47,252 nt of DNA. Origin: Methylococcales bacterium (GTDB lineage Bacteria > Pseudomonadota > Gammaproteobacteria > Methylococcales > JAZGGE01). Position 1 is the first letter of the stretch, and every line of letters begins with the position of its first letter. Below are positions 2,278 to 37,348 of the stretch, piece by piece. The stretch spans positions 1-47,252 of the forward strand of contig JAZGGE010000302.1 of assembly GCA_036480195.1 (NCBI GenBank). The letters are read 5' to 3'. The notes beneath the pieces are model-generated. The model did not search any database. It was not told the DNA's origin and saw nothing but the letters and a program-made list of their open reading frames with translations. The position numbers and the translations under genes are program-made.

Positions 2278-2356
2278 GTGGAAACAATTGCAGAAATTAG
2301 CTGGATCGGCGGAGTAGGTAAAACTACTGTGCTGCAATACGGGTAAGGATTAGGTA

Positions 2357-2809: not shown

Positions 2810-2834
2810 TCGTTTACATACCTAGAGGGTCTTC

Positions 2835-3701: not shown

Positions 3702-3710
3702 GGTATCGAT

Positions 3711-4346: not shown

Positions 4347-4365
4347 TTTTTGGACTGATTGGATA

Positions 4366-5445: not shown

Positions 5446-5456
5446 TAAATAGAGTA

Positions 5457-17345: not shown

Positions 17346-18195
17346 TGTGTTATGCCTCTAGCAGGTTGTGTTGACCAAGGAATTTAAGAAGTTGTCTGCG
17401 AACAGAAAGTCTTCTGGTTGATTCGCTCTTTTTATGTGAAAGGTCTCCGTTCCATGTTGAGCTGGCGGTAGCACATCCCCGGATAATATGCACTGTTCCT
17501 TCAATATTAGGTTTCAATTATATTGCTTACGACGATGCTTTACCATCCTAAACTGATTTTTCTCTGGTTTTGATAGGATTATTTATCAAAAAATTGCTGA
17601 AAAGTTTGTGGTTTCTGGGAATGCGTCGCCGTTAAATCAATCACCTACCCTGTTGTCATGCCTTGAAGACGTACAAATTCTTGTGAGATCTGGGTGGAGT
17701 ATTTATTGTGAATCACCTAAAGCCGCTTTACCAATGGTTTTCCTACGTTGGATAGGCGTTAGGTAACTGGCATAAACCAGAATCGATGGGTTGATTGTCG
17801 ATATTGTCCAATCGTATTCAAACTTATCGCTCCACAATCTATTTTTTATTTTTATACCATACGTGGGAAGACGCTTCCAAAAATATATTGATTTTTACAC
17901 AAATAAAGTGAGTAAAATTAACTCAAGGATATGTTTCAGTATCAATAAAATATGTATATTCGCTAAGGATTCTGCGGATCACGTATTTCATTAAAAATGG
18001 ATAGATTGTTAATGGTAATATCATTTCTAATTATCTATAACTTTATGAAAAATATGTTAGTCATACACCTGAGTGGTTACTTGTAAGGTGTCCAGGAGCT
18101 TGCAATGGCGAATATTGCATTAAAAAAAACTTGGTGAATTCGACTAATGATCGGTTTCGTCTATTCCAATATATAATCAGTTAGGAGGTATGGCC

Positions 18196-19149
18196 ATGAA
18201 AAGTCTACTCTATGGTGTTTGTTTATTTTTTTTAACTATTTTTAATCCGGTAACGGCTAAACCGTTCAGCGATATTGTCGTATTCGGAGGTCCTTTAGAA
18301 GATACTGGGAATTTTGCTTCAGTATTCGGAGAGTTGCCACCGCCTTTCTTTAAAAATCGGTTGAGTAATGGTCCACTGGCGGTGGAGATTTTTGCAGCAA
18401 GACTAGGTCTCGAACTCAAGCCTTCACTCCATCGAGTTGGTCCAGTGGTTGGTAATAATTTTTCCTCTTCGGATGCGTTAGCCTTCGGTAACGATCCTAA
18501 AGATTTACCCGGTCAAGTTAATGCCTATTTAGCGTCACGTAATGAAGAAGCGGATCCCGATGCACTTTATTATATAATTATTGGGGGTAACGAAGTCGTT
18601 GAAGCGGCTTTTGATACGGACGATTTTACTGCGCGACAAAAAGTAGTCGATACTGTTCGTGCTAAGGAAAAAGCCATCAAGCTCCTTGTTGCGAAGGGCG
18701 CCAAGACAATCCTTGTCTCAAATCTAATTAATTTCGGTATTACTCCCGCGCTTCGCGCAGCAAATTTATCGGATCGCGGAGCTAAATTATCTCGGATTCA
18801 CAACCGTCTATCCGAAGCGATGCTTTCTCGCGTTGAACGAAGATTGGATTTCGAATTGATCCGATATGATTGGGGTGAATTTACCAACGGGGCTATAAAT
18901 AACGCCGATATTTTAGGTTTTAGCAATATTTCCGATTCTTGCCTCGATTTACTCTCTACTGGCGAGTGTAATTTCAGTAGTTTTTTATTTTTCAATGAGT
19001 TTTTTCCTACTGCTAACGTCCACGAACTGATAGCTGACGACATGTTGTCGATCCTGATTCGTTCCCGTCGCCATTGTGAGGGAGAGTCCGTTAACAGAAG
19101 AACGTGTCGCCATCTACGTAGGATTATTTCTAGGATTTACCGGAAATAA
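18196..19149 (+). CDS. Secreted SGNH/GDSL-hydrolase homologue lacking the catalytic triad (probable pseudoenzyme)
   Basis: Signal peptide MKSLLYGVCLFFLTIFNPVTA/KP. Block I reads VVFGGPLEDTGN rather than the usual FGDSLSDTGN, so Ser becomes Pro. Block II is SNGPLAVE and block III is IIGGNEV. Block V reads FFNEFFPTANVHELIA rather than the usual FwDxvHPT, so Asp becomes Asn and His becomes Phe. ATG 18196 is 7 nt after AGGAGG. Confidence 0.75.
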   Translation: MKSLLYGVCLFFLTIFNPVTAKPFSDIVVFGGPLEDTGNFASVFGELPPPFFKNRLSNGPLAVEIFAARLGLELKPSLHRVGPVVGNNFSSSDALAFGNDPKDLPGQVNAYLASRNEEADPDALYYIIIGGNEVVEAAFDTDDFTARQKVVDTVRAKEKAIKLLVAKGAKTILVSNLINFGITPALRAANLSDRGAKLSRIHNRLSEAMLSRVERRLDFELIRYDWGEFTNGAINNADILGFSNISDSCLDLLSTGECNFSSFLFFNEFFPTANVHELIADDMLSILIRSRRHCEGESVNRRTCRHLRRIISRIYRK

Positions 19150-22162: not shown

Positions 22163-25100
22163 ATGGAATCTAGTAAATCACCCAATGAGATGGCATCCTC
22201 AAAAAAACATTTCAGTGATGAACCCATTGCTATCACTGGAATGGGATGTAGATTTCCCGGAGGCGCAGAATCACCGGAAGCATTCTGGAATCTTATTAGT
22301 CAGGGTAAGGATGGCATCGTTGATGTTCCGCGAGATCGGTGGGATGTTGATCGGTACTATGATCCAGATCCCAACAAACTGGGAAAGATGTACGTGAAAT
22401 CAGGTGGCTTTCTTGATCAGAGAATCGACCAATTCGATGCCCTGTTTTTTGGTGTATCTCCGAGAGAAGCTGCTTGCATGGATCCTCAGCAGAGAGTGTT
22501 GCTCGAAGTGGCTTGGGAAGCGATGGAAAATGCCGGGATAAATCCTGAGAGATTGCGAGGTAGCGAAACCGGTGTATTTATAGGTGGGTTTATGCTCGAC
22601 AATAACCTCACCCAAATGAATGTACTGAATAGGGATATGATCGGCCCGCATTCCGCGCTAGGGTCGACGATGACTATTCTTTCAAATCGTTTGTCATATG
22701 TATTCGATTTTCGCGGCCCGAGTGTGTCAATGGATACAGCGTGTTCTTCGTCTTTAGTTGCTCTACACTACGGATGTCAGGGTTTGTTAAATGGGGATTG
22801 TTCGGTAGCGTTGGTTGGTGGTGTCAATATTATGCATCGGCCTGAAAACCCAATTGCAATGTGCAAAGGACAGTTCTTATCTCCTGATGGTCGCTGTAAA
22901 AGCTTTGATTCAAGGGCTGATGGATACGGTCGTGGCGAAGGCGCGGGTATCGTTATCCTAAAAACGCGATCGGCCGCAATTCGTGATGGCGATGAAATTC
23001 ATGCGATTATTCGTGGAACAGGAGTCAATCAGGATGGCCACAGCGATGGAATCACTGTTCCCAATCCTGAATCACAACAAGAACTGATGCGTAAGGTATT
23101 TTCAGAAGCTAAAGTCGATCCCCGGCAGATTTGCTACATGGAGGCGCACGGAACCGGTACTCCGGTGGGCGACCCTTTGGAAGCCGGGTCTCTTGGGGCC
23201 GTGTTGGGGAAGGATCGCGGCTCAGAAAATCCCTGTGCGGTAGGATCTGTCAAAGCTAATATCGGTCACTTGGAAGCGGCTTCAGGAATCGCCGGGGTAA
23301 TTAAACTGGTGCTCTCTCTGCAACATAAACAGATACCACCGTTGGCAAACTTAAAAATGCCCAATCCGAATATTCCATTTGAAGAACTAGGGCTTAGACT
23401 TCCTATGTCACTCGAGTCAATGCCCTCAGGCAGTGAACCTGCTCTGGTTGCCATTAATTCATTTGGGTATGGTGGAACCAACGCTCACGCCATTCTTCAA
23501 GAAAACACAATTGAAAAGACGGAAATCTCGGAATCTCAAGAATTAACAGACGCAGATCCTTATCTGTTGCCACTCTCTGCAAAGAGCGAATCGGCAATGA
23601 AGGAACTTGCCAGTCGCTATTTGGAGAAAATAGACGCTGTCGATAGTCCTTCGTTGAGAGATTTGTGTTATTCCTCAAGTGTACATCGCGGGCATTACGA
23701 TTATCGATTAGGTGTGATCGCAAATACGATGGACGAAGTCAGAGACCAACTAAAAGACTTTGTCGATGGAATCGATAATGGGTCGCCGTCATTGGCGAAA
23801 GCGTTACCGGAGTCTACTAACAAGCCGGTATTTGTTTTTACTGGAATGGGGCCGCAATGGTGGGCTATGGGAAGGGAATTGCTAGACATTTACCCAGTTT
23901 TTCGGTCTGAAGTCGAACGTTGTGACAAGATTTTTACCAACCTGGCGGGGTGGTCGATTTTGCAAGCGATGTTAGCGGACAAGGAACTCTCAAATATTGC
24001 GGATACCGTTGTTGCACAACCGGCAAATTTTGTTTTACAAGTGGGATTAATAGCGCTGTGGCGATCTTTTGGTGTGGAACCGGCTGCAGTTATCGGTCAC
24101 AGCGTAGGTGAAGTAGCTTCTGCTTATATAGCGGGCGTTTTGAGTCTCGAAGATGCGATTAAGGTTAGTTATCATCGCAGTCGCGTTCAAAAGAAAGCAG
24201 CCGGGCTTGGAGGAATGCTAGCTGTCGGCCTTACAAAAAAAGAAGCTGACAAAATACTTGAAGATTACTACGGAAAAGTCTCTATCGCAGCGATTAATAG
24301 CCAATCAGCATTGACGTTGGCTGGGGATCAGCCTTCACTATCAAAAATTGCAGAAGCTTTGGAAGTGGACGGCGTTTTTAATCGATTATTGAAAGTTGAG
24401 GTTCCCTATCATAGTCCGTTAATGGAGCCGTTGAAGGACGAAATAAGATCGAGTCTTAGTGGACTAGAGACACGAGAGCCGAGTATACCGTTGTATTCCA
24501 CGGTAACTGGAAGGCTGATCGAGACGGCTAGTTATGATGCAGACTATTGGTGTCAAAATATTCGAGAGCCCGTCTTTTTTTCTGACACGATAAACACGAT
24601 GATAGAAGCAGGTTATCGACTTTTTGTTGAAGTGGGTCCTCATCCGGTATTGTCGACATCGATCAAAGAATGTCTGATGGGCCGAGGGAGTCAGGGAGTC
24701 GTTTTAACGTCGCTGCATTGTGAGAAACAAGAACAGAGCACCTTAATGCAGGCGTTAGCGAATCTGTATGCTGCTGGCTATTCACCGGATTGGAAACGCC
24801 TCTATCCAGACGGTGGAAATTTCATCTCCCTTCCCAACTATCCTTGGCAACGTGAAAGTTATTGGAATGAAACCGAAAAGGCATTGTTAGATCGCATCGG
24901 ATTGGAGCGGGTGAGTTTCTTGGGGGATAGTGTAAGATCGCCAAATCCTTGCTGGGAGAATACTCTTAACACCAGTACGTTACCATTCTTGGACGACCAC
25001 TATGTCGATGAATTACGGGTGTTACCGGGCGCTGCGTACGTTGAAGCCGGGTTGATGATACATGAAAATACAATCAACGATTCGGTTCCCGTACTGGAAA

Positions 25101-28100
25101 ATTTAGATTTCCATAATGCACTGGTGATCGATGATAGTGATGATCCCACGATTTATTGCTCTTTCGATCCAGAGTCACAAGTTTATCATGTTCATAGTCA
25201 TTCAAAAGTATCCGCAAGCCCATGGAGGCTACATGCCTCAGGTCGGTTATGCCGAACGCTTTCAGGGTCGCCTCCTCCGGTAAATTTAGAGGAGCTAAAA
25301 GCTTCATTGTCGGAATATATATCCAGTGATATGCACTACCAACGGATGAATGCTCGGGGTTTGGATTACGGTCCATATTTTCAAGGGGTACGTGAATTAT
25401 GGCTTAATTCTGATCGATCCAACGTCTTGGCGAAGATCGAAGGGCATAAAGATTTGGTGAGAAGCAAGGATCAGTATTTGCTGCATCCTACCTTGTTGGA
25501 CGCTTGCTTCCAGACATTATTGACGACCCTGGATGAAGGTGACGAAAATATTTACGTACCTGTCCATATTGATCGTGTTCATTTTTATTCGAGTCCGGAA
25601 AAAACATTTTGGTGTCTGGGGAGTATTAAGCGATGTCAAACCGGAATGATCGAAGGTGATCTGACTTTGTGCGACACCAATGGCACCGTATTGGTCGATA
25701 TTCGAGGTGTTCGTGCAAAGGCACTGACGAATAATACGGATGTTCTTGTAAATGCTCACCAGTGGACCTACCAATTCGATTGGAAACAGGCAGAGTTACC
25801 CGACACCTTTGAAAAACCGGAACGGGTTCTTCTATTTAAGGACGAAGGAGAAACAGGGAGACAATTGGTCGATCAGTTTAATGGTCGGGGTGCTCAGGAA
25901 ATTGTTACGGTAAAAGCAGCAGAAGCTTTCTGCTGTGACTCTTCGACGCACTATGGAATTCGTCCTGGACATAAGGAGGATATGCAGCAGCTGATAGCAA
26001 ATTGCAACGGATCGGGTTTCAGCCATATTGTTTATCTGTGGCCTCTTAACGCAAAATCGCAACAGCGCCCAATAACGGATTCGACTGATCTTGTTACTTG
26101 CCTGTATTTGATTCAGGCTTTGACCCAATTTCAAGGTAATAATCCGCCTCGTTTGGTTGTTGTAACCCAAGGAGCACAAGCAATTAGTGCCACTGAGTCC
26201 ATTGCTTCATTAGATCAAACGCCATTGTACGGATTGATCAGGGTAGCAATGAACGAGAATCCGGAGCTATCGTATCGCTTGGTCGATCTAGGCCCGGAGC
26301 TAACCGCCAGTCTATCACAACAGCTAGTTGACGAATGTCTGGCTGACGGTGGAGATGAGGAGGTCGTCTTACGTGATTCTGGGCGTTTTGTTCACCGATT
26401 TAATCGGATGGCGCTTAGCGATCCAAACGCCGAGATTGACGAAGACCAGCCCACTGCAGTCTCAATTAACCGACCTTATCGATTGGAAATCGACGAATCT
26501 CGAGATATTGGTAGTCTTCGATTCAGAGAAAACGTTCGTTCAAAGCCACAATCGGAAGAAGTCGAGATCGAGGTTCATGCGGCCATGCTCGATACGATCG
26601 ATGTTCTAGCAAGCCAACACGATATTATTACTGGTACTGGCACCGAGATTATTTTGGTCGGCCGAATTTGCAGAATTGGAGATTCTGTTGGTTCTTTGAA
26701 GGTCGGTGACTCAGTGGTCAGTATGACGGATAATCTAATCGGTTCCTTTATTACCAAGCGCTTTGAAACCGTGTTTTCATTCCCGGCACTGAAGAACTTT
26801 GATTTTGAAGCGTGTGCGACGATTCCTCTGGATTTTGTAACCGCTTTTCATGGTCTTTTCCAAACCGCCCGGATCAAGCGTAGAGAACGCATCGTGATTC
26901 ACGATGCGGCGAGTGCAACGGGCTTGGCGGCGATTCAAGTAGCGCGTTGGCAAGGCGCAGATATTTATGCAACTGTTAACAACGAGAATCAAAAAGATTA
27001 TCTTCTCGCGTTAGGCATTAAACACGTATGGTTGTCGGATCCGATTTTATCTTTTGACAGTATATCAAAGCTCACGTTGGGCAAGGGCGTGGATGTTGTC
27101 TTTAATAGTGGATCAGTGGAGCTGGCCAGAAAAAGCATTGCTTTATTGGCTCCGTTTGGACGGATTATAGTGACTGATAAAAACGAATCGGTTTTACCGA
27201 GCTTCGAGATGGGGAATGTCAGCTCGAATATACAAATCATCAACATTGACATCGCCGGTATGATTATTGAGCAGCCGAATTTATTCAAGAACTTGCTTAA
27301 TCAGGTTTGTAATCATATTAACGCTTCTGACTTTACCCCCCTACCGTATACGTCGTTCACCTCACGTCAAGTCATTAAGGCGTTTCAATACCTCCAGGAT
27401 GACGAATCACCAACCAAGGTGGTTCTCAACCTACGTAGTATCCCAGCAATATCGATTTACCGAAAAATTGAGAAAACACCACTATTTTCCGAGAATGCCA
27501 GCTATCTAATCACCGGTGGGTTTGGAGGGTTTGGGCTATCAACGGCGGCTTGGATGGTCGAAAATGGTGCCCGAAATTTAGTCTTGGTGGGCCGGAGAGG
27601 GGCCGCCACCGATGAGGCAAAACAAGCTGTGCAGTCGATCGAGTCGAAAGGTTGCAAAGTTCTTTCGTTAGCAGTCGATATCTCTGAAGAAGCCCAAGTC
27701 GTCAAATTGTTCGCGAGTATTGCCAAAAGCTTACCGCCTCTGAGGGGTGTCATGCATACGGCCGCAGTACTTGATGATGGACCCCTTAATTATTTAACAA
27801 AAGATCAATTCGATCGCGTGATGGGCCCTAAAGCGCTAGGTGCTTGGAATTTGCATCAACATTTATCCGATTCAACGCTGGATTTTTTCTTTCTATTTTC
27901 CTCAATCGCGTCGCAAGTGGGAAGTCCTGGTCAAGCCACTTATGTTGCGGCCAATACGTTCCTCGATGCTTTGGCACAATTGCGAAACGCGCAAGGATTG
28001 ACGGCAACGAGCATCCAGTGGGGTGCGCTGGGTGATGTTGGTATGGCTGCTCGTCATGAAGAGGTCAAACAATACTTCGCCCGGGTTGGCATTAATTCTC

Positions 28101-28720
28101 TATCGCCTAAACAGGCAGTGAGTATGTTGGGTAGGTTACTGCCAAAATTGCCCGAGCAGATTGCAATAGCCGATATGAATTGGGAGAAATGGGGAGAATT
28201 CAATCCGGTTTGGGCCGGATCCCCTCGATTCTCTCACCTTGTTTCTGAACATGCTGATCTGGAGCCAGCGGTTTCTACAAATAAATATATTCAGCAAATA
28301 TTAGCAGCAACAGCAGACGCTAAACCGAAAGTTGTGACGGATCTAATCGCCGAGGAAGTTGCTCGGATATTACGTTTACCCATTGATAAAGTTGAGATCG
28401 ATCAGTCGCTCGCCAACATGGGGGTCGACTCTCTACTGGCAATGGAATTGCAGACGGCGATAAAGCAGAATTTCGGAGTCAACATATCAACCTTAGAGCT
28501 AATGAAGGGCAACACACTAGCTCAAATTGGTACGCAAATTCAAGAGAAGATACCGATTTCAATAGGTTCGTCAAAATCAACTGCGGATGCGTTGTTGCTC
28601 CCGGAAGAGACAGAAGTAGAAAACAAAGCTATCCAGCCGGATGATGTCGATGCACTATCAGACGACGAAGTAACGACTTTATTAAACGCTTTATTATCGA
28701 AAGAGGAGGTTCCTCAATGA
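22163..28720 (+). CDS. Type I polyketide synthase, single fully reducing module KS-AT-DH-ER-KR-ACP (MAS-like architecture), no loading domain
   Basis: Approximate domain spans are by my residue count.
- KS (~22223-23500): DTAC194SSS, EAH329GTGT, NIGH369LE.
- AT (~23825-24742): GHS647VGE, VEVPYHS.
- DH (~24905-25732): LDDH946YVDELRVLPGAAY, YGPYF, LLD1113ACFQ.
- ER (~26471-27433): EVEIEVHAAMLDTIDV, VIHDAASATGLAAIQVA.
- KR (~27497-28042): ITGGFGGFGL, LDD motif, Y1927VAAN.
- ACP (~28310-28537): GVDS2090LLAMEL. Confidence 0.93.
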   Translation: MESSKSPNEMASSKKHFSDEPIAITGMGCRFPGGAESPEAFWNLISQGKDGIVDVPRDRWDVDRYYDPDPNKLGKMYVKSGGFLDQRIDQFDALFFGVSPREAACMDPQQRVLLEVAWEAMENAGINPERLRGSETGVFIGGFMLDNNLTQMNVLNRDMIGPHSALGSTMTILSNRLSYVFDFRGPSVSMDTACSSSLVALHYGCQGLLNGDCSVALVGGVNIMHRPENPIAMCKGQFLSPDGRCKSFDSRADGYGRGEGAGIVILKTRSAAIRDGDEIHAIIRGTGVNQDGHSDGITVPNPESQQELMRKVFSEAKVDPRQICYMEAHGTGTPVGDPLEAGSLGAVLGKDRGSENPCAVGSVKANIGHLEAASGIAGVIKLVLSLQHKQIPPLANLKMPNPNIPFEELGLRLPMSLESMPSGSEPALVAINSFGYGGTNAHAILQENTIEKTEISESQELTDADPYLLPLSAKSESAMKELASRYLEKIDAVDSPSLRDLCYSSSVHRGHYDYRLGVIANTMDEVRDQLKDFVDGIDNGSPSLAKALPESTNKPVFVFTGMGPQWWAMGRELLDIYPVFRSEVERCDKIFTNLAGWSILQAMLADKELSNIADTVVAQPANFVLQVGLIALWRSFGVEPAAVIGHSVGEVASAYIAGVLSLEDAIKVSYHRSRVQKKAAGLGGMLAVGLTKKEADKILEDYYGKVSIAAINSQSALTLAGDQPSLSKIAEALEVDGVFNRLLKVEVPYHSPLMEPLKDEIRSSLSGLETREPSIPLYSTVTGRLIETASYDADYWCQNIREPVFFSDTINTMIEAGYRLFVEVGPHPVLSTSIKECLMGRGSQGVVLTSLHCEKQEQSTLMQALANLYAAGYSPDWKRLYPDGGNFISLPNYPWQRESYWNETEKALLDRIGLERVSFLGDSVRSPNPCWENTLNTSTLPFLDDHYVDELRVLPGAAYVEAGLMIHENTINDSVPVLENLDFHNALVIDDSDDPTIYCSFDPESQVYHVHSHSKVSASPWRLHASGRLCRTLSGSPPPVNLEELKASLSEYISSDMHYQRMNARGLDYGPYFQGVRELWLNSDRSNVLAKIEGHKDLVRSKDQYLLHPTLLDACFQTLLTTLDEGDENIYVPVHIDRVHFYSSPEKTFWCLGSIKRCQTGMIEGDLTLCDTNGTVLVDIRGVRAKALTNNTDVLVNAHQWTYQFDWKQAELPDTFEKPERVLLFKDEGETGRQLVDQFNGRGAQEIVTVKAAEAFCCDSSTHYGIRPGHKEDMQQLIANCNGSGFSHIVYLWPLNAKSQQRPITDSTDLVTCLYLIQALTQFQGNNPPRLVVVTQGAQAISATESIASLDQTPLYGLIRVAMNENPELSYRLVDLGPELTASLSQQLVDECLADGGDEEVVLRDSGRFVHRFNRMALSDPNAEIDEDQPTAVSINRPYRLEIDESRDIGSLRFRENVRSKPQSEEVEIEVHAAMLDTIDVLASQHDIITGTGTEIILVGRICRIGDSVGSLKVGDSVVSMTDNLIGSFITKRFETVFSFPALKNFDFEACATIPLDFVTAFHGLFQTARIKRRERIVIHDAASATGLAAIQVARWQGADIYATVNNENQKDYLLALGIKHVWLSDPILSFDSISKLTLGKGVDVVFNSGSVELARKSIALLAPFGRIIVTDKNESVLPSFEMGNVSSNIQIINIDIAGMIIEQPNLFKNLLNQVCNHINASDFTPLPYTSFTSRQVIKAFQYLQDDESPTKVVLNLRSIPAISIYRKIEKTPLFSENASYLITGGFGGFGLSTAAWMVENGARNLVLVGRRGAATDEAKQAVQSIESKGCKVLSLAVDISEEAQVVKLFASIAKSLPPLRGVMHTAAVLDDGPLNYLTKDQFDRVMGPKALGAWNLHQHLSDSTLDFFFLFSSIASQVGSPGQATYVAANTFLDALAQLRNAQGLTATSIQWGALGDVGMAARHEEVKQYFARVGINSLSPKQAVSMLGRLLPKLPEQIAIADMNWEKWGEFNPVWAGSPRFSHLVSEHADLEPAVSTNKYIQQILAATADAKPKVVTDLIAEEVARILRLPIDKVEIDQSLANMGVDSLLAMELQTAIKQNFGVNISTLELMKGNTLAQIGTQIQEKIPISIGSSKSTADALLLPEETEVENKAIQPDDVDALSDDEVTTLLNALLSKEEVPQ

Positions 28721-31700
28721 ACAATATGCACGCGCATTCAGCTGATTTGTCGAGTGAGGAGAAACGCCGCTTGCTGGCTTCACTGCTTGATAAAAACGCG
28801 AGGGTTGGCTCAACGGGAAAAGAGAACTTGTCCTTATCTTCAGGCCAAAAAGCCCTATGGTTCTTGCATCAGAGCGCCCCATATAGCTCCGCCTATCATA
28901 TCGCATTTGCGTTACGTATTCGCTCTAACTTTAGGGTTGATGCGTTGCAAAGTGCTTTTCAGGCACTTGTTGATCGACATCCAATGCTACGTTCGAAATA
29001 TGCAGTGGAAAACGGTGAACCGATACAACGAGTCTACGAACAAGAGGAAGTGTGCATCGAACGGATCGATGCGTCAGGTTTAACCGAGACTGACTTAAAG
29101 TCGAAAGTAACGGAATCCTATGAGCGACCTTTCGATCTAGAAAGTGATCGGTTGATTCGAATGACTTTGTTGAGTCGAGAGCAAGACGATCATATTCTTC
29201 TACTCACGGTTCATCATATTGCTTTCGATGGTTGGTCGTTGTGGCTTTATCAAGATGAATTGAAAAAGCTATATTGCGCGGAGCTTGCGGGGATACCGGC
29301 CAAGTTGCCCGAAGTAAGTGTTTCTTACTCCGATTTTATTCTTTGGCAACAGGGCTTTCTGGCGGGTGAAGATGGTGAAAAGCAATGGGAATATTGGCGA
29401 AACCAACTCGCTGATGTTGAACCCGTTTTGAATTTACCGTTGGATAAATTACGCCCTGCCACTCAGTCTTATGCGGGCGCGTCGATTCCATTTGAACTGG
29501 AATCGACGTTGGCTAAAAGGTTAACAACAGTGGCTCAAGCACAAGGTGTGACGCCGTTTACACTCTATCTTAGTGCTTTTCAGGTTTTGTTATCTCGCTA
29601 TACTCGGCAACAAGAGATTCTAGTTGCTTCTCCGACAACGGGTCGAACCGAAAGCCAATTTTCACAGGTTGTTGGCTATTTCGTTAATACAGTGGTCTTA
29701 AGGGGGGATCTATCAAATAATCCAACCTTTTCGGAATTTTTGCAGCGTACTCGGGATACCGTTTTGGAAGCGTTGGAGCACCAAGATTTCCCCTTTTCGG
29801 TACTGGTTGAACGTTTGCAACCACAGCGAGATCCAAGTTATTCACCCTTGGTGCAAACCTCTTTCGTTTTACAGAAGCCACAACAGTCTTCGGCCAATCA
29901 CTTAGTACAAGGGAAAAACAGTACCCCTCAAACCTGGGGTGATATGGAGGTAACGGTCTATAACATTAATCAGCAAGAAGGGCAATTTGACCTTGAGTTG
30001 GAAATGCTGGATAGAGGCGATGGGTTGAAGTCAGTCATTAAATACAACACCGATTTATTTCATAAGGAAACTATTGAGCGGATGACGGGTCACTTCAGTT
30101 CACTATTAGTGGGCATTGCAAGTAATCCGCAGCAACGCATAACAGATATCCCACTATTAACCCTCGACGAAACGGAAGAATTACTGATCCGATGGAACAA
30201 CACCGATTACCACTATTCGGATAATGCTTGTCTGCAAACCTTGGTGGAGCGTCAGGCTAAAAAAACCCCAGACAATACAGCCGTTGTTTCTGAAGATAAC
30301 ACGCTGAGCTACCGCGATCTTAATTCAGACGCAAATCAACTGGCTCATTATTTAAAAAACAAAGGTATTGGCCCTGATGTGGTGGTCGGAATCTTTGCAC
30401 AACGCTCGATCGAAATGGTGGTCGGTTTACTAGCCATCTTAAAAGCGGGTGGTGCGTATCTTCCATTGGATCCCGAGTTGCCGGATGACCGGATTGCCTT
30501 TATGTTGCAAGATGCCAAAGTTAATGTTGTGCTGACTCAAGAGGACTTGGCCGGGGATCTTGCGGTATATAACATCGATATCGTCTGTTTGAACGCGGAT
30601 TGGATTGAAATTTCAAAGTGTAATTCTGAGAACCCGAGCATCGAAACAACACTGGATGATTTGGCCTATGTCTTGTACACCTCGGGATCAACCGGTCAGC
30701 CTAAAGGTGCCATGAATACTCATCGAGGTATCAGTAATCGGCTGTTATGGATGCAACAAGTCTACCGACTCATGGAAACGGATCGTGTGTTGCAGAAGAC
30801 GCCTTATAGTTTTGACGTCTCGGTTTGGGAATTCTTTTGGCCTTTACTAACGGGTGCGCAACTGGTGATGGCCAGACCGGGAGGACACAAGGATTGCCGA
30901 TATCTCATCGAAACCGTTATTGATCAAGGTATTACGACGATACATTTTGTGCCTCCCATGCTGCAGCTATTTGTCGAGGAGAATGATGTTGAAAACTGTA
31001 GATGTCTGAAACGAGTGATCTGTAGCGGCGAAGCCTTACCGATCGAATTGCAGACACGATTCTTTTCGAAACTGTCAGCTGAGCTGCACAATCTCTACGG
31101 CCCAACGGAAGCCGCGATCGATGTTACCTTTTGGGAGTGCGATTCCCACACTTCGTTAGACTTTATTCCCATTGGCCGACCGATTGCCAATACTCAGATT
31201 TATCTCCTTGATGATGGACTCAATCCAGTCCCCATTGGTATTCCAGGCGAGCTTCATATTGGTGGTGAAGGTTTGGCAAGAGGTTATTTAAATCGTGATG
31301 AATTGACGGCAGAAAAATTTATCACCAATCCCTTCGATAATAGTGGCCAGTCAAGGTTATACAAAACCGGGGATCTGGCGCGATTCATGAGCGATGGGAA
31401 TATCGAATTTTTGGGTCGTATTGATAACCAGGTAAAAATTCGAGGTTTTCGTATCGAACTCGGAGAAATCGAAACACTACTATCGCAGTTTTCCGGTATT
31501 CAAGAAACCGTAGTATTGGCGAGGGACAGCGGTCGGGCCGAAAAATGCTTGGTGGCGTATGTCGTGTGCGAGCGTGACCAGACGCCGACACCATCAATAC
31601 TACGGGAATATCTTGGAAAAAGCGTACCAGACTATATGATTCCCAGCGCATTTGTTTTTCTCGAAGCCATGCCGCTAACGCATAACGGTAAAATTAATCG

Positions 31701-32940
31701 GCGTGAGCTGCCTGAACCGGATAATGCTAGAGGTCGTACTGAACAGATCTACGTTCCTCCTCGGGATGAGCTGGAACAAAAGTTGACGGAATTGTGGGAG
31801 AAGGTATTGAATAAGCGTCCACTCGGCGTGATGGATAACTTTTTCGAATTTGGTGGTCACTCTCTACTCGCGGTTCGGCTGACTGCCGACATTGAAAAGG
31901 AGTTTAATAAAACCGTACCGCTATCCTTGTTTTTCCAGTATCCAACGATTGCATCCTTCAGTCGATGGTTGCGGGAAAACAAAATAGCGCTGCCGTGGTC
32001 ACCCTTGGTACCAATTCAAAGTTCTGGCAATTTGCCACCTTTGTTTTGTGTGCCCGGTGGTGGTGGAAATGTTCTTTACTTTTACGAACTGGCGCGCTGT
32101 TTGGGGCCCAATCAGCCTTTTTATGGTCTTCAAGCACGAGGTTTAGATGGAATAGATGAGCCTTTTTCAACAGTGGAGGCGATGGCTGCCCATCATATTG
32201 AGGCAATACGCTCGGTACAAGCCTACGGTCCCTATTCTCTTGGCGGACATTGTTTCGGAAGTATGGTGGCTTTCGAGATAGCTCAACAGCTGCAGCGGCA
32301 GGGTCAGGAAGTTTCTTTGGTGGTGATATTGGATGCTCCAGCACCGATCGATGCGAATGCTCATCCTTCCATAGAGTGGGATGACATCGACTGGATTTGC
32401 CATTTTGGAAACGTCATCGAACAGGCGACCGAGCAACAATTCGAGCTGGTACGTCAGGTGTTACAAGATCTTTCTCCTGATCAACGTTTGGGCCGTCTGA
32501 AAGATTGTTTGCAACGTGCAGGGTTCTTGCCGGAGCACGTTGATGATCGTCATGTTAAAGGGCTTTTAGAGGTATTTAAGACGAATGGCAGAATTCAGTA
32601 TTCACCCGTAGATATTTTTCCGACCCCACTGGTTTTGCTTAGAGCCAGCGAATTTCATGCAGATTACAATTTCGATGGTCGCGAGGAGGGAACGATTCCC
32701 GTGTCAGCGCTTGGCTGGAATACGCTGACTTCGGCATCAGTCGAAATCCGAAATGTGCCGGGTAATCATATTACGATGATGTCCTCGTCGAATGCAGAAG
32801 CGCTCGCGAATGTACTATCAGACTGTCTGGAAAATAGTCGCAGAGAAAAGTCGGTGGATTCGAATTTATCGCAACCTCTTGTGTCACCAATGCCCTTGAG
32901 TGCTGGTTCAACTCACGTAAAGTTGACGAACGTTAGGTGA
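28717..32940 (+). CDS. Non-ribosomal peptide synthetase, single module C-A-PCP-TE (Ser-type A-domain code; TE with Cys nucleophile)
   Basis: The start overlaps the PKS stop as ATGA, with GAGGAGG 7 nt upstream.
- C (~28834-30126): HHIAFDGWS.
- A (~30214-31716): LAYVLYTSGSTGQPKG, FDVSVWEFF, NLYGPTEA, GELHIGGEGLARGY, YKTGDLAR, GRIDNQVKIRGFRIELGEIE, NGKINR.
- PCP (~31759-31971): FFEFGGHSLLAV.
- TE (~32014-32811): PLFCVPGGGGNV, GGHC1179FGS, ILDAP, GNHITMM. Confidence 0.93.
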   Translation: MNNMHAHSADLSSEEKRRLLASLLDKNARVGSTGKENLSLSSGQKALWFLHQSAPYSSAYHIAFALRIRSNFRVDALQSAFQALVDRHPMLRSKYAVENGEPIQRVYEQEEVCIERIDASGLTETDLKSKVTESYERPFDLESDRLIRMTLLSREQDDHILLLTVHHIAFDGWSLWLYQDELKKLYCAELAGIPAKLPEVSVSYSDFILWQQGFLAGEDGEKQWEYWRNQLADVEPVLNLPLDKLRPATQSYAGASIPFELESTLAKRLTTVAQAQGVTPFTLYLSAFQVLLSRYTRQQEILVASPTTGRTESQFSQVVGYFVNTVVLRGDLSNNPTFSEFLQRTRDTVLEALEHQDFPFSVLVERLQPQRDPSYSPLVQTSFVLQKPQQSSANHLVQGKNSTPQTWGDMEVTVYNINQQEGQFDLELEMLDRGDGLKSVIKYNTDLFHKETIERMTGHFSSLLVGIASNPQQRITDIPLLTLDETEELLIRWNNTDYHYSDNACLQTLVERQAKKTPDNTAVVSEDNTLSYRDLNSDANQLAHYLKNKGIGPDVVVGIFAQRSIEMVVGLLAILKAGGAYLPLDPELPDDRIAFMLQDAKVNVVLTQEDLAGDLAVYNIDIVCLNADWIEISKCNSENPSIETTLDDLAYVLYTSGSTGQPKGAMNTHRGISNRLLWMQQVYRLMETDRVLQKTPYSFDVSVWEFFWPLLTGAQLVMARPGGHKDCRYLIETVIDQGITTIHFVPPMLQLFVEENDVENCRCLKRVICSGEALPIELQTRFFSKLSAELHNLYGPTEAAIDVTFWECDSHTSLDFIPIGRPIANTQIYLLDDGLNPVPIGIPGELHIGGEGLARGYLNRDELTAEKFITNPFDNSGQSRLYKTGDLARFMSDGNIEFLGRIDNQVKIRGFRIELGEIETLLSQFSGIQETVVLARDSGRAEKCLVAYVVCERDQTPTPSILREYLGKSVPDYMIPSAFVFLEAMPLTHNGKINRRELPEPDNARGRTEQIYVPPRDELEQKLTELWEKVLNKRPLGVMDNFFEFGGHSLLAVRLTADIEKEFNKTVPLSLFFQYPTIASFSRWLRENKIALPWSPLVPIQSSGNLPPLFCVPGGGGNVLYFYELARCLGPNQPFYGLQARGLDGIDEPFSTVEAMAAHHIEAIRSVQAYGPYSLGGHCFGSMVAFEIAQQLQRQGQEVSLVVILDAPAPIDANAHPSIEWDDIDWICHFGNVIEQATEQQFELVRQVLQDLSPDQRLGRLKDCLQRAGFLPEHVDDRHVKGLLEVFKTNGRIQYSPVDIFPTPLVLLRASEFHADYNFDGREEGTIPVSALGWNTLTSASVEIRNVPGNHITMMSSSNAEALANVLSDCLENSRREKSVDSNLSQPLVSPMPLSAGSTHVKLTNVR

Positions 32941-32983: not shown

Positions 32984-35329
32984 ATGGTTAAAGTATATAT
33001 TCGTTGGGTTATTCGGTGGCGCTGGTTCGTCGTGATCGCTTCAATTTTAGCGGTAGTGGGCGCAGGTAGCGGTGGCCAATTTTTGCTATTCAACAATGAC
33101 TACCGCATTTTCTTTAGCGAGGAAAATCCGCAACTGAAAGCTTTCGATGTACTACAAAAAACCTACACCAAAAGTGATAACGTTCTGTTCGTATTAGCAC
33201 CCGCGAACAAACAGGTTTTCTCACGAGAGATGCTAAGTACAGTAGAAAAACTAACCGATAAAGCCTGGAAGATACCCTATTCGACACGGGTTGATTCGAT
33301 TACAAATTTTCAACATAGTTATGCTGTGGAAGATAACTTAATCGTTGGCGACCTTGTCAAGAACTCCGATCAGTTATCAGCCAACGATCTGCAGCGTATC
33401 GAATCAATTGCATTACGGGAACCGTTACTCGTTAATCTGCTAGTTTCACCAAACGCTCAGGTTACCGGCGTTAACGTATCGATTCAGCTGCCAGAAAAGG
33501 GTGCAAATGACGCGGTAAGAGAGATTGCGGCTTACGTGAGACAACTGGCGGCAGAAATAACAGCCGAAAATCCGGGATTGGAAATTCATCTTACCGGAAT
33601 GTTGATGATGAACAATGCCTTTCCGGAATCATCGGAATACGATATCAAGCTTCTGGTTCCAATTATGTTCGGGACCATTATTATTCTCGCCGGCATCATG
33701 CTAAAGACAGTGAGCGGTGTTATTGCAACCTTGCTTGTTATAGTATTTTCCATATTTTCAGCGATGGGGCTTGCGGGTTGGTTGGGCATCGCACTGTCCT
33801 CTACCAGTCTCGCTGCACCCAATATCATTTTGACGCTGGCGGTGGCGGATTGTATTCATATTCTCTCCAATTTTCTTAAAGCTATGCGTGACGGTGAAGC
33901 AAAAGACGAAGCTCTTACCGAGAGTCTTAGAATAAATTTCCAGCCGGTATTTTTAGCCACACTAACGACTACCATTGGATTCTTGTCACTTAACTTCAGT
34001 GATGCGCCACCGTTTCATGATCTAGGGAACATTACTGCACTAGGTATCATCACCGCATTTTTACTTTCGATTACTTTTTTACCTGCAGTGGTTGCAATCC
34101 TTCCCATTCGTGTGCGTCAGGATCGAGATCTGACATCGCGGAGCATCGAACGATTAGGGCAGTTTGTCATTCGAAAAAAAAGGTCATTGTTGTTGGGGAT
34201 GTCCGCCTTAGTGGTCGCCTTAGTGGCGTGCATACCCGCTAACGAGCTTAATGACGAATACATTAAATATTTTGGCGAATCGCTGTCTTTCCGAAGAGAT
34301 ACGGACTTTGCGATGGAAAATCTAACAGGGATTTATTACATCGACTATTCACTTCGCTCAAAAGGCTCTGGAGCAGTGACGGAGCCAGCTTTTCTCGCTA
34401 ATGTTGATGCGTTTGCAAGTTGGTATCGGAAACAGCCGGAAGTACTTCATGTGAACAGTATAACCGACACATTCAAACGTCTAAATAGAAATATGAACGG
34501 CGATGATTCGAGTTGGTATCGTTTGCCCGAAGAGAGTGATCGCGCTGCCCAATACTTGTTGTTATATGAGCTTTCACTGCCCTATGGTTTGGATCTTAAC
34601 GATCGTATTAACATTGATAAGTCAGCCACTCGTTTAACGGCAACCCTTAAAAACCTTTCGAGCCGAGAAGTATTGGCCTTGGAAGAACGGGCTCAGGATT
34701 GGTTAAAAAACAATGCACCACTCTCCATGCACGTACCAGGGTCCGGTCCAACGATTATGTTTGCTCATATCGGGCAACGTAATATCGAAAGCATGTTAAT
34801 TGGGACGACAATAGCCTTAGTGTTGATTTCGTTCATTCTGATTTTCGCGTTTCGATCCTTCAAACTTGGATTGATCAGCTTGGTTCCAAATCTTGTACCG
34901 GTCGGCATGGCTTTTGGTTTATGGGGCCTTGTTGTCGGTCGTGTGGGCTTGGCTTTGAGTGTTGTTGCAGCGATGACGCTTGGGATTGTCGTTGACGATA
35001 CTGTCCATTTCTTGAGCAAGTACAGGAGAGCTCGAAACGAGAAGAATATGACTTCAGAACAGGCGATTCTGTACAGTTTCAATACCGTTGGTACAGCGCT
35101 TTGCGTCACTTCTGTTGTTCTTATCGCGGGATTCTCGGTGTTGGCATTTTCCAGTTTCGAGATCAATTCGGGCATGGGCATGTTAACCGCGATTGCGATC
35201 GGTTTTGCGCTGATTGCGGATTTACTACTGTTACCACCATTGTTAATGAAAATAGAGAGGAAAAATCATGAAACGGAAACTACTCGTCTTAATTCCACTA
35301 CTCTTAAGCTCTCACGGGACTCCAGCTGA
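32984..35329 (+). CDS. MMPL/RND-superfamily exporter (HpnN-like, 12-TM with two large periplasmic loops)
   Basis: The protein has two homologous halves. Each has a TM helix, a ~160-190 aa soluble loop and a 5-TM bundle carrying a charged motif (TLAVADCIHILSNF and LGIVVDDTVHFLSKY). This is typical of MMPL/SSD lipid exporters. Confidence 0.85.
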   Translation: MVKVYIRWVIRWRWFVVIASILAVVGAGSGGQFLLFNNDYRIFFSEENPQLKAFDVLQKTYTKSDNVLFVLAPANKQVFSREMLSTVEKLTDKAWKIPYSTRVDSITNFQHSYAVEDNLIVGDLVKNSDQLSANDLQRIESIALREPLLVNLLVSPNAQVTGVNVSIQLPEKGANDAVREIAAYVRQLAAEITAENPGLEIHLTGMLMMNNAFPESSEYDIKLLVPIMFGTIIILAGIMLKTVSGVIATLLVIVFSIFSAMGLAGWLGIALSSTSLAAPNIILTLAVADCIHILSNFLKAMRDGEAKDEALTESLRINFQPVFLATLTTTIGFLSLNFSDAPPFHDLGNITALGIITAFLLSITFLPAVVAILPIRVRQDRDLTSRSIERLGQFVIRKKRSLLLGMSALVVALVACIPANELNDEYIKYFGESLSFRRDTDFAMENLTGIYYIDYSLRSKGSGAVTEPAFLANVDAFASWYRKQPEVLHVNSITDTFKRLNRNMNGDDSSWYRLPEESDRAAQYLLLYELSLPYGLDLNDRINIDKSATRLTATLKNLSSREVLALEERAQDWLKNNAPLSMHVPGSGPTIMFAHIGQRNIESMLIGTTIALVLISFILIFAFRSFKLGLISLVPNLVPVGMAFGLWGLVVGRVGLALSVVAAMTLGIVVDDTVHFLSKYRRARNEKNMTSEQAILYSFNTVGTALCVTSVVLIAGFSVLAFSSFEINSGMGMLTAIAIGFALIADLLLLPPLLMKIERKNHETETTRLNSTTLKLSRDSS

Positions 35330-36053
35330 ACCGTCACCGGAGCAGCGAGGACTGGAAATCGCAACTGAAGCAGAAAATCGTGACAAGGGATTTCAAAATT
35401 TCGTTGCCGATCTTACCATGATCTTAAGAAATCGGCAGGGAGAAGAAAGTGTTCGCTTTATTCACCGAAAAACCCTTGAAGTAGAAGAGGACGGAGATAA
35501 AACATTGGATGTTTTTAGGCAGCCGAAGGATATTAAAGGAACCACAATACTGACCTATTCTCACGGATTGGAGCAGGACGATCAATGGATATTTATGCCG
35601 GCAATTAAACGCGTCAAGCGTATTTCATCGGTCAACAAATCGGGTCCCTTTATGGGGAGTGAATTTTCCTATGAGGATATTGCTGATCAGACATTGAAAA
35701 AATTTCATTACAAATTCTTGGGTAATGAGGTTGTTGATGGACATGAATGCTTTATGTTAGAGAGAATCCCTGCCTATGAGTATTCTGGATACACTCGACA
35801 GATCGAATCGATGGATACCGAAATTTATCAGCCGCGTAAGATTACCTACTACGATCGTAAAGGTGCTTTGTTAAAGACTCTAAAATTTTCCGGTTATGAA
35901 CAGTATTTGGGTAAACACTGGCGACCAAACCAGATGAATATGGAAAACCATCAATCCGGAAAGACAACCCAATTGATTTGGACGAATTATGAATTTCAAA
36001 TTGCTGTGACAGATCTTGATTTCACCCAAAATAGTATGAAGAGGATTCGTTAG
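35268..36053 (+). CDS. LolA-like 'outer membrane lipoprotein-sorting protein' family periplasmic protein
   Basis: Signal peptide MKRKLLVLIPLLLSS. The body matches my recollection of the LolA_like family (GLEIATEAENRDKGFQNF...DQWIFMPAIKRVKRISS..GPFMGSEFSYEDI). The start is 62 nt inside the end of the MMPL gene, with an AGAGAGG RBS. Confidence 0.75.
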   Translation: MKRKLLVLIPLLLSSHGTPAEPSPEQRGLEIATEAENRDKGFQNFVADLTMILRNRQGEESVRFIHRKTLEVEEDGDKTLDVFRQPKDIKGTTILTYSHGLEQDDQWIFMPAIKRVKRISSVNKSGPFMGSEFSYEDIADQTLKKFHYKFLGNEVVDGHECFMLERIPAYEYSGYTRQIESMDTEIYQPRKITYYDRKGALLKTLKFSGYEQYLGKHWRPNQMNMENHQSGKTTQLIWTNYEFQIAVTDLDFTQNSMKRIR

Positions 36054-36109: not shown

Positions 36110-37348
36110 ATGGGATTGATACATCGAGGGTTAAATAGATCTGCCGTGTTTATATTATTGATATCGACAGCAATTTCAGTAAAGTCCGCCGATTTTTCCA
36201 ACTACGGCGAATTTACGGGCTTTACCGCTATCGATTTGCGGCTCTTTCCTGAATCCCCCCGGTTTAACGAACAGGATAAGGATATTTTGTTCCCTTCTCT
36301 TGTTATGCAACCCGAATATCGTTTTGAGTGGAATGGCGGTAATGATCGATTGACACTTATCCCGTTTTTCCGCTTAGATCCTATCGATGAAGAACGGCAA
36401 CATTTTGATTTGAGGGAGCTAAATTGGATACATCTTGAGCCTTCCTGGGATATTCGTATTGGCTTGGGCGTCGTGTTTTGGGGTGTAACAGAATCGCGAC
36501 ACCTTGTGAATATTATTAACCAGACGGATACTTTAGAGGATATAGATGAAGAAGATAAGCTAGGTCAACCCATGATCAATCTAAATCTTGTGCGTAACTG
36601 GGGTAACCTGGAGTTTTTTTTATTACCTAAATTTAGACAGCGAACCTTCCCAAATCGTTACGGACGGCTCCGTGCTCCGATTCCAATCGATACAGACAAC
36701 GCGATGTATGAATCGGCGGCTAAGTCAAATCATCTCGATTTCGCGGGCCGATGGAGCCATGTCATTGGCGACTGGGATATTGGGCTCGCTCATTTCGTCG
36801 GCACGAGTAGAGAACCTAGGCTTGTGCCGCATTCTAACGAAATAGGACAACGGATACACTTAGTCCCTCATTACGATATCATCAATCAAACGAGTATCGA
36901 TGTCCAAGCCACGAAAGGAAACTGGTTATGGAAACTAGAAGCGATTTCACGCGCCGGTCATGACCGACGGTTTCAAGCTGTTGTTACGGGTTTTGAATAT
37001 ACTTTTTATGGCACAGCTAATACCAGTATCGATGCTGGAATCGTTGCTGAATATTTGTGGGATGATCGTAGCGAAGAGGCGCCACTGACACCCTTCGACA
37101 ATGATATATTTATCGGCAGTCGGTTGGCGTTTAACGACGAACAGAGCACAGAACTCCTAATGGGCGCGTTTATTGACCTCAGCAGTGGAGCCAGCATCAT
37201 TACGGTTGAGGGCAGTCGGCGCATGGGTGATTCCTGGAAGTTGGATCTTGATGCACGAATTTTTGGTAATATTCCAGAAAGTGATTTGTCGTTGTCTAGC
37301 CTGCGCAATGATTCCTTCCTAAACATTCGGTTGTCCTATTTTTTCTAG
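36110..37348 (+). CDS. Putative outer-membrane beta-barrel protein (unknown family)
   Basis: Signal peptide ...LLISTAISVKSA/DF. Alternating hydrophobic and polar stretches run throughout. The C-terminus ...FLNIRLSYFF ends in an aromatic residue, as in OMP beta-signals. An AGGAG RBS is present. It is the last gene of the PKS operon. Confidence 0.55.
   Translation: MGLIHRGLNRSAVFILLISTAISVKSADFSNYGEFTGFTAIDLRLFPESPRFNEQDKDILFPSLVMQPEYRFEWNGGNDRLTLIPFFRLDPIDEERQHFDLRELNWIHLEPSWDIRIGLGVVFWGVTESRHLVNIINQTDTLEDIDEEDKLGQPMINLNLVRNWGNLEFFLLPKFRQRTFPNRYGRLRAPIPIDTDNAMYESAAKSNHLDFAGRWSHVIGDWDIGLAHFVGTSREPRLVPHSNEIGQRIHLVPHYDIINQTSIDVQATKGNWLWKLEAISRAGHDRRFQAVVTGFEYTFYGTANTSIDAGIVAEYLWDDRSEEAPLTPFDNDIFIGSRLAFNDEQSTELLMGAFIDLSSGASIITVEGSRRMGDSWKLDLDARIFGNIPESDLSLSSLRNDSFLNIRLSYFF

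Follow-up and report, generated by a model that had tools for sequence, protein, structure and literature searches.

How is a cysteine to be read when it stands in place of the nucleophilic serine of a nonribosomal peptide synthetase (NRPS) thioesterase (TE)? The question is raised by a 47,252-nucleotide contig of a Methylococcales bacterium (JAZGGE010000302.1, assembly GCA_036480195.1; the whole stretch is hereafter called the window), which encodes a one-module NRPS whose TE carries the elbow GGHCFGS. An earlier note on this DNA had linked the Cys to the TEs of ObiF and SulM, which make the beta-lactone of obafluorin and the beta-lactam of sulfazecin, and had proposed an N-acyl-serine beta-lactone as the product. 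The reading that we prefer, and to which we give about an even chance, is a plainer one: an AB3403-type Cys-TE, acting at the end of a one-module polyketide synthase (PKS) and a one-module NRPS, releases an N-acyl-serine for export. In this reading, the Cys is a trait conserved across a clade whose TEs discharge lipo-products with one amino acid (Ser, Thr or Gly), and it is neither a signature of four-membered-ring formation nor evidence for a beta-lactone.

Cys1179 as the catalytic nucleophile

The NRPS is a termination module of the order C-A-PCP-TE (condensation, adenylation, peptidyl carrier protein, thioesterase), and its translation holds every catalytic motif of the four domains intact (Table 1). 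In a whole-domain alignment with the TE of AB3403 from Acinetobacter baumannii (PDB 4ZXH, E 4e-29), Cys1179 falls opposite the AB3403 Cys (LGGHCFGS versus LGGWCFGG), and ILDAP falls opposite MIDTRAP. An AlphaFold2 (AF2) model of the window TE, built from an alignment of Cys-type relatives (mean pLDDT 85.6), has in TE numbering a strand at 79-84, then Cys85 and a helix at 86-100, which is the layout of a nucleophile elbow; a second strand (105-111) leads to Asp112 and a third (248-253) precedes His257. Alignment and model identify Cys1179 as the true catalytic nucleophile, in a predicted Cys1179-His1351-Asp1206 triad. The description given in the earlier note holds on each of these points: the elbow and its TGT codon read exactly as reported, the Asp of ILDAP and the His of GNHITMM are retained as Asp1206 and His1351, and its caution that another residue might be the nucleophile is answered by the place of Cys1179 in both alignment and model.

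A second caution was that the codon might be a read error. Identical copies of the 1407-aa protein were found on five contigs, four of which are traced to as many different samples (ERZ25073254, SRR10729170, SRR17063066 and ERZ25083849, the last at 73x coverage); identity across four independent samples rules out a TCT/TGT error, and Cys in all 18 members of the clade described below agrees with this. As a separate observation, the ERZ25073254 contig (L001, 3443-10004) carries the upstream PKS as two open reading frames (ORFs) of 1958 and 225 aa, versus the single 2185-aa frame of the window, which is a frameshift or a variant within that sample.

Kinship with AB3403

By sequence, the top PDB match of the window TE is AB3403 (4ZXH, also 4ZXI), at the E value given above and over the whole domain; by fold, 4ZXH is again the top PDB match of the AF2 model (Foldseek, TM 0.72). 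AB3403 is thereby the closest structurally characterized TE on both counts. It has a nucleophilic Cys and an Asp at the usual "position I", is called "uncharacterized", and is, besides ObiF and SulM, the sole structurally characterized NRPS TE with a nucleophilic Cys (PMC11298585, Patel et al., 2024). Sequence and predicted fold place the window TE in kinship with AB3403, with the same combination of Cys elbow (GGHCFGS and GGWCFGG) and position-I Asp.

The likeness extends to the gene and its surroundings. AB3403 (A1S_0115, ABBFA_003403) is also a single C-A-PCP-TE module with the same domain order, an RND/MMPL exporter (likened here by family) lies directly downstream of it, followed by hypothetical proteins, and in both systems a single amino acid would be N-acylated by a probably 2-enoyl lipid chain. 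The operon concerned, A1S_0112-0119, is needed for motility, pellicle formation and virulence, and encodes an acyl-CoA synthetase, an acyl-CoA dehydrogenase, an acyl carrier protein (ACP), the NRPS (the AB3403 orthologue), an RND-superfamily exporter (A1S_0116), a phosphopantetheinyl transferase (PPTase) and two hypothetical proteins, one called porin-like (PMC5376624). The two systems differ in several respects. AB3403 is treated as Gly-activating in reviews, whereas the window A domain has a Ser code, although one clade member, from Methylomicrobium lacus, is of the Gly type too. In Acinetobacter the chain comes from the acyl-CoA synthetase, the dehydrogenase and a free ACP, in place of which the window has a PKS, and no acyl-CoA synthetase, acyl-CoA dehydrogenase, free ACP or PPTase was found among the window ORFs. 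The dehydrogenase could make a 2-enoyl chain, in parallel to the degenerate enoylreductase (ER) of the window PKS. The PPTase and a 621-aa two-domain protein belong to the Acinetobacter operon only, neither having been seen in the window; reciprocally, the LolA-like and dead GDSL-like proteins of the window cassette are not described for the Acinetobacter operon (PMC5376624).

The sole reported product of that operon is Ac-505 (C23H43N3O7S), which its authors regard as a Cys-Gly adduct, possibly glutathione-derived, formed from some electrophilic precursor, "such as a lactone or epoxide" (PMC5376624). By our arithmetic, Ac-505 minus Cys-Gly is C18H33NO4, a formula shared by N-(hydroxy-enoyl)-Gly and by N-(hydroxyacyl)-Ser after loss of water, which hence does not separate the models. 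A literature search for a solved Acinetobacter product, or for the cassette itself, returned nothing newer than Ac-505.

Cysteine as a recurrent substitution in the family

Catalytic-Cys TEs were called rare in the earlier note; a survey of relatives shows Cys to be less rare than that. Cys was found in 27/120 of the best TE homologues of a protein collection, in 24 of 252 non-identical related TE sequences, and in 15 of 148 representatives from a profile search of 1.8 billion proteins. Species-representative genomes yielded no close orthologue: their best 80 TE relatives were at most 46% identical, the transporter genes accompanied none, and one carried Cys while the other 79 carried Ser. A metagenome scan with a Cys-only alignment returned mostly Ser TEs and at least eight Cys loci, several of them on short contigs.

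In a neighbor-joining tree, the Cys TEs are distributed over ten separate groups. The isolated cases include a PKS-terminal ACP-TE adjoining a glycosyltransferase, a stand-alone TE that follows a beta-Ala-like A domain with P450s close by, a stand-alone PCP-TE amid lipid-type enzymes, and the ends of multimodular NRPSs with Pro-, Asn-, Gly- and other A codes. Cys is thus a recurrent substitution of the TE family that is diagnostic of no single chemistry. Some 10% of the relatives have it, spread over ten or more lineages and many contexts, so that GxCxG alone predicts neither a beta-lactone nor a beta-lactam.

A serine-type adenylation domain

The Stachelhaus code of the window A domain, DVWHISLIDK, is of the Ser type, and the top single-domain PDB matches are Txo2_A1/Txo1_A3 (~325 bits), both of them Ser-specific A domains (PMC8244413). 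EntF is also a strong match (242 bits), compared with just 123 bits for the A domain of AB3403. The EntF code, DVWHFSLVDK, is nearly identical to that of the window. Assignment of the window A domain to the Ser type is well supported by this comparison, and since the A domain is Ser-type the TE-bound intermediate is most likely an N-acyl-seryl thioester. Both points had been anticipated in the earlier note, and both stand.

The all-Cys clade and its glycine exception

The window TE lies inside a clade in which 18 of 18 members have Cys, at 41-50% identity to the window TE, and whose sister group has Ser; a chance substitution is thereby ruled out. This clade comprised 14 members in a first tree, and 18 in a later one, with AB3403 as outgroup, after the addition of representatives (three, full-length or near-full-length), one fragment and a Methylomicrobium sequence. 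The position-I Asp is kept in 16 of the 18; L169 and P0002 have Asn there. Nearly all members also share the motif H-x-[DE]-Y-x-[YF] in the loop after strand beta7 (HADYNF in the window), and its Tyr is missing from the Ser-nucleophile sister group.

Eleven A codes of the clade are readable. Four are Ser (DVWHISLIDK; window, L086, L089 and P0159), two are Thr (DFWNIGMVHK; L085 and L088), four are Thr-like (DVWNIAMVHK; L094, P0146, P0148 and P0140) and one is Gly (DILQLGMVWK; L169). Ser or Thr-like codes thus make up 10/11 in the clade versus 5/53 outside it (Fisher p ~3e-6, a value to be read with the caveat that the clade members belong to one cassette lineage and are not independent).

The Gly code belongs to M. 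lacus (L169, CP169217.1, ~1.828-1.849 Mb), a locus reached through a search with the 412-aa protein encoded downstream of the window NRPS. Its TE is 47% identical to that of the window, with GGHCFGA, HPEYDF and Asn at position I, and is sister to P0002 (bootstrap 60/60), the pair being nested within the all-Cys clade. There is no stop codon after the TE, and the NRPS and the MMPL transporter form one open frame (locus 3-6065), which suggests that release is physically coupled to export; a LolA-like gene, four small ORFs, an outer-membrane protein gene and a PPTase gene that ends the cluster follow. A rule that Cys always accompanies Ser or Thr was true of the first ten clade members and was abandoned once the Gly-coded M. 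lacus module broke it. Since that module is nested in the clade, Cys is kept where no beta-hydroxyl exists, which weakens the idea that its purpose is a beta-lactone.

Proposed release and export of N-acyl-serine

The preferred route would start with the PKS, which would pass on a fatty acyl chain, probably 2-enoyl given the decayed NADPH-binding loop of its ER domain. The C domain would use it to N-acylate the L-Ser held on the PCP, and the N-acyl-seryl group would then move from the pantetheine thiol to Cys1179 through transthioesterification. The resulting acyl-enzyme would be resolved, most likely by water, to give a small N-acyl-serine lipo-amino acid, which the MMPL pump, the LolA-like carrier and the outer-membrane protein would carry to the cell surface or the medium.

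Several points weigh against this route and account for the reserve with which we hold it. Monophyly of the all-Cys clade has a bootstrap of 35/60 in the neighbor-joining trees. The strict retention of Cys, set against Ser-dominated sisters, argues that the thioester is needed for something beyond simple hydrolysis, and hydrolytic release leaves that retention unaccounted for. The Ser/Thr bias of the A codes fits a chemistry that uses the beta-hydroxyl. The kinship with AB3403 is distant, at 27-29% identity between the TEs, and the A domains are not orthologous, as the low match noted above indicates. Finally, no product is known for any clade member, and AB3403 itself is "uncharacterized".

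Comparison with ObiF, SulM and EntF

The catalytic Asp of ObiF has moved to a later strand, so that the triad resembles that of RifR; placing the Asp as in EntF is reported to impair loading of this enzyme, and moving it there failed to bring activity back (PMC6668435, Kreitler et al., 2019). SulM has the same displaced Asp after strand beta7, at "position II"; the authors tie this displacement to ring closure in both enzymes, which group with type II TEs, and note that sulfazecin and obafluorin are small (PMC11298585).

The window TE shares with ObiF a GxCxG nucleophile, a C-A-PCP-TE module, an N-acylated beta-hydroxy amino acid on the PCP (predicted from the Ser code in the window) and a small product (a proposed one in the window). 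ObiF has Gly at position I, its Asp after beta7, a RifR-like triad and type II grouping, whereas Asp1206 of the window is at position I and no RifR/RedJ-like, ObiF or SulM kinship emerged from PDB sequence or Foldseek comparison. ObiF also has an MbtH-like domain and works with an aryl carrier, and neither PKS nor MMPL accompanies it. With SulM the window has in common a Cys nucleophile, and SulM likewise makes a small peptide product; its Gln-Cys-Asn elbow, position-II Asp, Arg-rich pocket and terminal Dap have no counterpart in the window. ObiF (6N8E) matches the window TE at E 1e-3, against the far stronger match of AB3403, SulM is absent from the PDB sequence matches at E <=0.01, and neither enzyme is among the top 50 Foldseek matches of the TE model in the PDB. 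The chemical link to ObiF and SulM drawn in the earlier note is therefore not supported by Asp position, sequence or fold. One resemblance remains at the level of position: the HADYNF loop is the place where ObiF and SulM hold their catalytic Asp, and an acidic residue is present here too.

EntF resembles the window in its C-A-PCP-TE order, Ser-activating A domain, N-acyl-Ser on the TE and Asp at position I. It differs in having a Ser nucleophile, an aryl cap, an MbtH partner and a TE that trimerizes and cyclizes, and the similarity between the two TEs is weak (E 2e-10).

Alternative chemistries

The alternative that survives best is the beta-lactone, which we regard as possible but doubtful. 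Here the Cys-bound N-acyl-seryl thioester would be closed by its own beta-hydroxyl (4-exo-trig) and an N-acyl-serine beta-lactone would be exported as an electrophile, which implies an origin of lactone-forming TEs independent of ObiF. Strict conservation of Cys in the clade speaks for it, as do the ten of eleven codes for Ser or Thr-like residues, since switching between Ser and Thr keeps the beta-hydroxyl. ObiF requires Cys1146 for its lactone, C1146S mainly hydrolyzing (PMC6668435), the post-beta7 loop has its acidic motif, and the authors of Ac-505 propose a lactone- or epoxide-like precursor for the AB3403 operon (PMC5376624). Set against these are the position-I Asp, in the arrangement that hinders loading in ObiF, the lack of relatedness to ObiF or SulM, and the repeated occurrence of Cys in other settings, behind Asn-, Gly-, Pro- or beta-Ala-like A domains and at the end of PKSs. 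Moreover, the Gly-coded M. lacus module, sister to P0002, keeps its Cys, AB3403 is of the Gly type too, and no lactone is possible there. What stands of the original proposal is the nucleophile, the Ser specificity and the N-acyl-seryl intermediate, with a beta-lactone a lesser possibility for the Ser/Thr members; what falls is its footing, as Cys is neither rare nor specific and the Asp position and TE lineage are not those of ObiF and SulM. A broader form of the idea, slightly more doubtful, is that NRPS TEs which form beta-lactones evolved independently a second time, in a lineage represented by this clade that combines Cys with the canonical Asp position; it would make N-(2-enoyl)-Ser/Thr beta-lactones with dedicated MMPL/LolA-like/outer-membrane export, and the Gly relatives (M. 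lacus, AB3403) would be derived. If true, such products would be ring-contracted look-alikes of acyl-homoserine lactones with two electrophilic sites.

It is unlikely, in our estimate, that the Cys acyl-enzyme is resolved by another nucleophile, whether the Ser/Thr hydroxyl of a second molecule or an acceptor lipid or protein, giving enterobactin-like ester-linked dimers or trimers, or release physically coupled to the MMPL pump. EntF, a Ser-loading C-A-PCP-TE enzyme, oligomerizes N-acyl-Ser units and thereby offers a precedent; the in-frame NRPS-MMPL fusion of M. lacus suggests a direct hand-off, and the Ser/Thr bias fits a hydroxyl as acyl acceptor. EntF, however, works with a Ser nucleophile, so transfer leaves the Cys unexplained, and the Gly members have no hydroxyl to offer. 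The only hydrolase-like partner in the cassette, the GDSL-like protein, is without catalytic Ser, Asp and His and so cannot be the transferase.

Quite unlikely is a third possibility, that the thioester serves alpha-carbon chemistry, namely epimerization or beta-elimination, since a thioester on Cys raises the acidity of the alpha-proton. The outcome would be an N-acyl-dehydroalanine or -dehydrobutyrine electrophile, or an alpha-functionalized glycine in the Gly members, so that this chemistry, to its credit, applies to Gly as well as to Ser/Thr members. C18H33NO4 is consistent with it, as N-(hydroxyacyl)-Ser minus water or equally as N-(hydroxy-enoyl)-Gly, and the second-best PDB matches of the window TE (7CRN, 7DXO) are of a TE that epimerizes and cyclizes. 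The known epimerizing TEs considered here nevertheless use Ser, namely NocB (PMC11298585) and 7CRN, which aligns with GWSLG; hydroxide, moreover, leaves poorly, and no enzyme that might activate it is encoded in the cassette. Last, an assembly artefact or a relic TE, for which the single base separating TGT from TCT and the PKS broken into two ORFs in L001 (pointing to a frameshift in that assembly) could be cited, is negligible given the identical protein in four independent samples, Cys in 18 of 18 clade members and intact C, A, PCP and TE motifs, and was rejected.

Organization of the cassette

The upstream PKS, whose stop codon overlaps the NRPS start (ATGA), retains the ketosynthase Cys/His/His, acyltransferase GHSVG and ACP GVDS motifs (Table 1). 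Its ER loop is degenerate, and so, in different ways, are those of two cassette homologues (IQQAGLPLGLAA in L086 and IYEADSTQGLAA in L085), compared with the canonical IHAAAGGVGLAA found in four unrelated PKSs (L048, L066, L068 and L069). The ER domain is probably inactive and, with its NADPH loop decayed, the delivered chain is probably 2-enoyl.

Table 1. Features of the NRPS and its cassette, in window coordinates unless NRPS residues are stated.
Feature	Position	Strand	Basis or remark
Secreted GDSL/SGNH-like protein	18190..19149	+	Pfam Lipase_GDSL; cassette member
Type I PKS, KS-AT-DH-ER-KR-ACP, 2185 aa, putative acyl-chain supplier	22163..28720	+	Pfam
ER NADPH-binding loop, degenerate IHDAASATGLAA versus canonical IHAAAGGVGLAA	26897..26932	+	Motif comparison
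NRPS termination module C-A-PCP-TE, 1407 aa	28717..32940	+	Pfam, NCBIfam, translation
Condensation domain	NRPS residues 37-490		Pfam
AMP-binding domain	NRPS residues 511-858, C-terminal part reaching 992		Pfam
PP-binding domain	NRPS residues 1021-1085		Pfam
Thioesterase domain PF00975	NRPS residues 1107-1367		Pfam
C-domain motif HHIAFDG (HHxxxDG)	29212-29232	+	Sequence check
Adenylation domain, code DVWHISLIDK (Ser-type)	30247..31692	+	Code extraction; PDB matches
PCP Ser1049	31861-31863	+	Sequence check
Type I thioesterase domain, AB3403 kind	32035..32817	+	PF00975 E 1e-31; 4ZXH E 4e-29; AF2; Foldseek
Nucleophile elbow GGHCFGS, GGC GGA CAT TGT TTC GGA AGT	32242..32262	+	Read from window
Cys1179, codon TGT	32251-32253	+	Translation of ORF 28717-32940
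Predicted triad Asp1206 (ILDAP), codon GAT	32332..32334	+	Alignment with Asp of AB3403 MIDTRAP; AF2 model
HADYNF, loop after strand beta7 of TE	32656..32673	+	Consensus H-x-[DE]-Y-x-[YF]
Predicted triad His1351 (GNHITMM), codon CAT	32767..32769	+	Invariant in both TE alignments; AF2 model
MMPL/HAE3-type RND inner-membrane transporter, 781 aa	32984..35329	+	Pfam MMPL, TIGR00921
LolA-like (PF17131, DUF1329-related) periplasmic lipid-carrier-like protein, signal peptide	35268..36053	+	Pfam E 1e-57
412-aa protein, signal peptide, C-terminus ...RLSYFF	36110..37348	+	Translation; no Pfam match

Three genes downstream of the NRPS make up the presumptive export route. L085 and the P0001 contig have the MMPL gene at the corresponding location, and in M. 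lacus it continues the reading frame of the NRPS. C-termini such as ...RLSYFF are common in outer-membrane barrels, and from its own C-terminus and signal peptide the 412-aa protein is probably a beta-barrel of the outer membrane that completes the exporter as its third part. It belongs to a very large family, with identities of 50-60%, that always adjoins the MMPL and LolA-like genes; more than 7,600 relatives of the protein were found, none with a Pfam family. The triad of MMPL, LolA-like and ~400-aa proteins occurs with an NRPS (L169), with a PKS only (L170) or alone (L171 and L172); we read it as a general, widespread exporter of lipids across the envelope, taken over by this cassette. In mycobacteria, MAS-like PKSs of the KS-AT-DH-ER-KR-ACP type also adjoin an MMPL transporter for a surface lipid, and coupling of synthesis to export has been proposed for PpsE-MmpL7, which the NRPS-MMPL fusion of M. 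lacus echoes when the two are likened by domain families only. Unlike the mycobacterial systems, the window cassette is Gram-negative and includes a LolA-like carrier, an outer-membrane protein, an NRPS module and a Cys-TE.

On the other side of the PKS, the GDSL-like protein has lost its catalytic residues: block I reads FGGPLED (18283-18303), with Pro for Ser, and block V reads FFNEFFPT, with Asn for Asp and Phe for His. In L085, L086, L088, L089 and L097 a homologue of 48-55% identity is found downstream of the TE, in most of them immediately after it. Four of the six members, that of the window among them, have Pro in place of the block I Ser, and no homologue with a readable block V retains either the Asp or the His of that block. 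A role for this protein as O-acyltransferase or lactone hydrolase was considered and rejected, its catalytic Ser, Asp and His being gone. By these residues it is a conserved pseudo-hydrolase, for which hydrolase or acyltransferase activity of the usual type is impossible.

Where flanks are readable, the recurring cassette thus contains the PKS, the NRPS, the MMPL and LolA-like proteins, a protein of ~410-430 aa without Pfam match, and the GDSL-like protein. In L085 and the P0001 contig, PKS and NRPS are accompanied by the exporter genes and a GDSL-like gene; the shorter contigs L086, L088, L089 and L097 hold the NRPS end and the GDSL-like gene. Between the GDSL-like gene and the PKS, the window also encodes a 738-aa FG-GAP/ASPIC-UnbV repeat protein (19437-21653, minus strand), for which no counterpart was seen in the other copies of the cassette that were examined.

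Other loci in the window

Outside the cassette, an MbnB/TglH/ChrH-family (DUF692) enzyme (15922-16770, minus strand) adjoins a DUF2063/NGO1945_C partner (15177-15971, minus strand). Such a pair is typical of modification systems of the methanobactin or bufferin kind for ribosomally made peptides that undergo post-translational modification, and a precursor gene may sit just upstream on the minus strand, at ~16779-17345. A chemotaxis set (MCP, CheW, a STAS-domain protein, CheR, CheD, CheB and a second MCP) spans positions 3-6647; after it, at 7338-9113, comes a response-regulator/SpoIIE phosphatase/HATPase protein.

Significance

The genome-mining rule that GxCxG announces a strained ring is tempting and needs correction: alongside the motif, the position of the Asp and the lineage of the TE have to be checked. 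The analysis also defines a conserved, uncharacterized cassette, present in diverse Gram-negative metagenomic bacteria, that combines a PKS whose ER is probably dead, an NRPS of the Ser, Thr or Gly type in which the Cys-TE is obligatory, MMPL, LolA-like and outer-membrane proteins, and a dead GDSL-like protein. M. lacus, a cultured methanotroph, carries a Gly-type, MMPL-fused version that links this cassette to the AB3403 operon. The product of that operon and the chemistry of its TE are unsolved, and the need of this lineage for Cys bears directly on the problem, for which the Ser and Gly systems offer simpler settings in which to work out what the Cys is required for.

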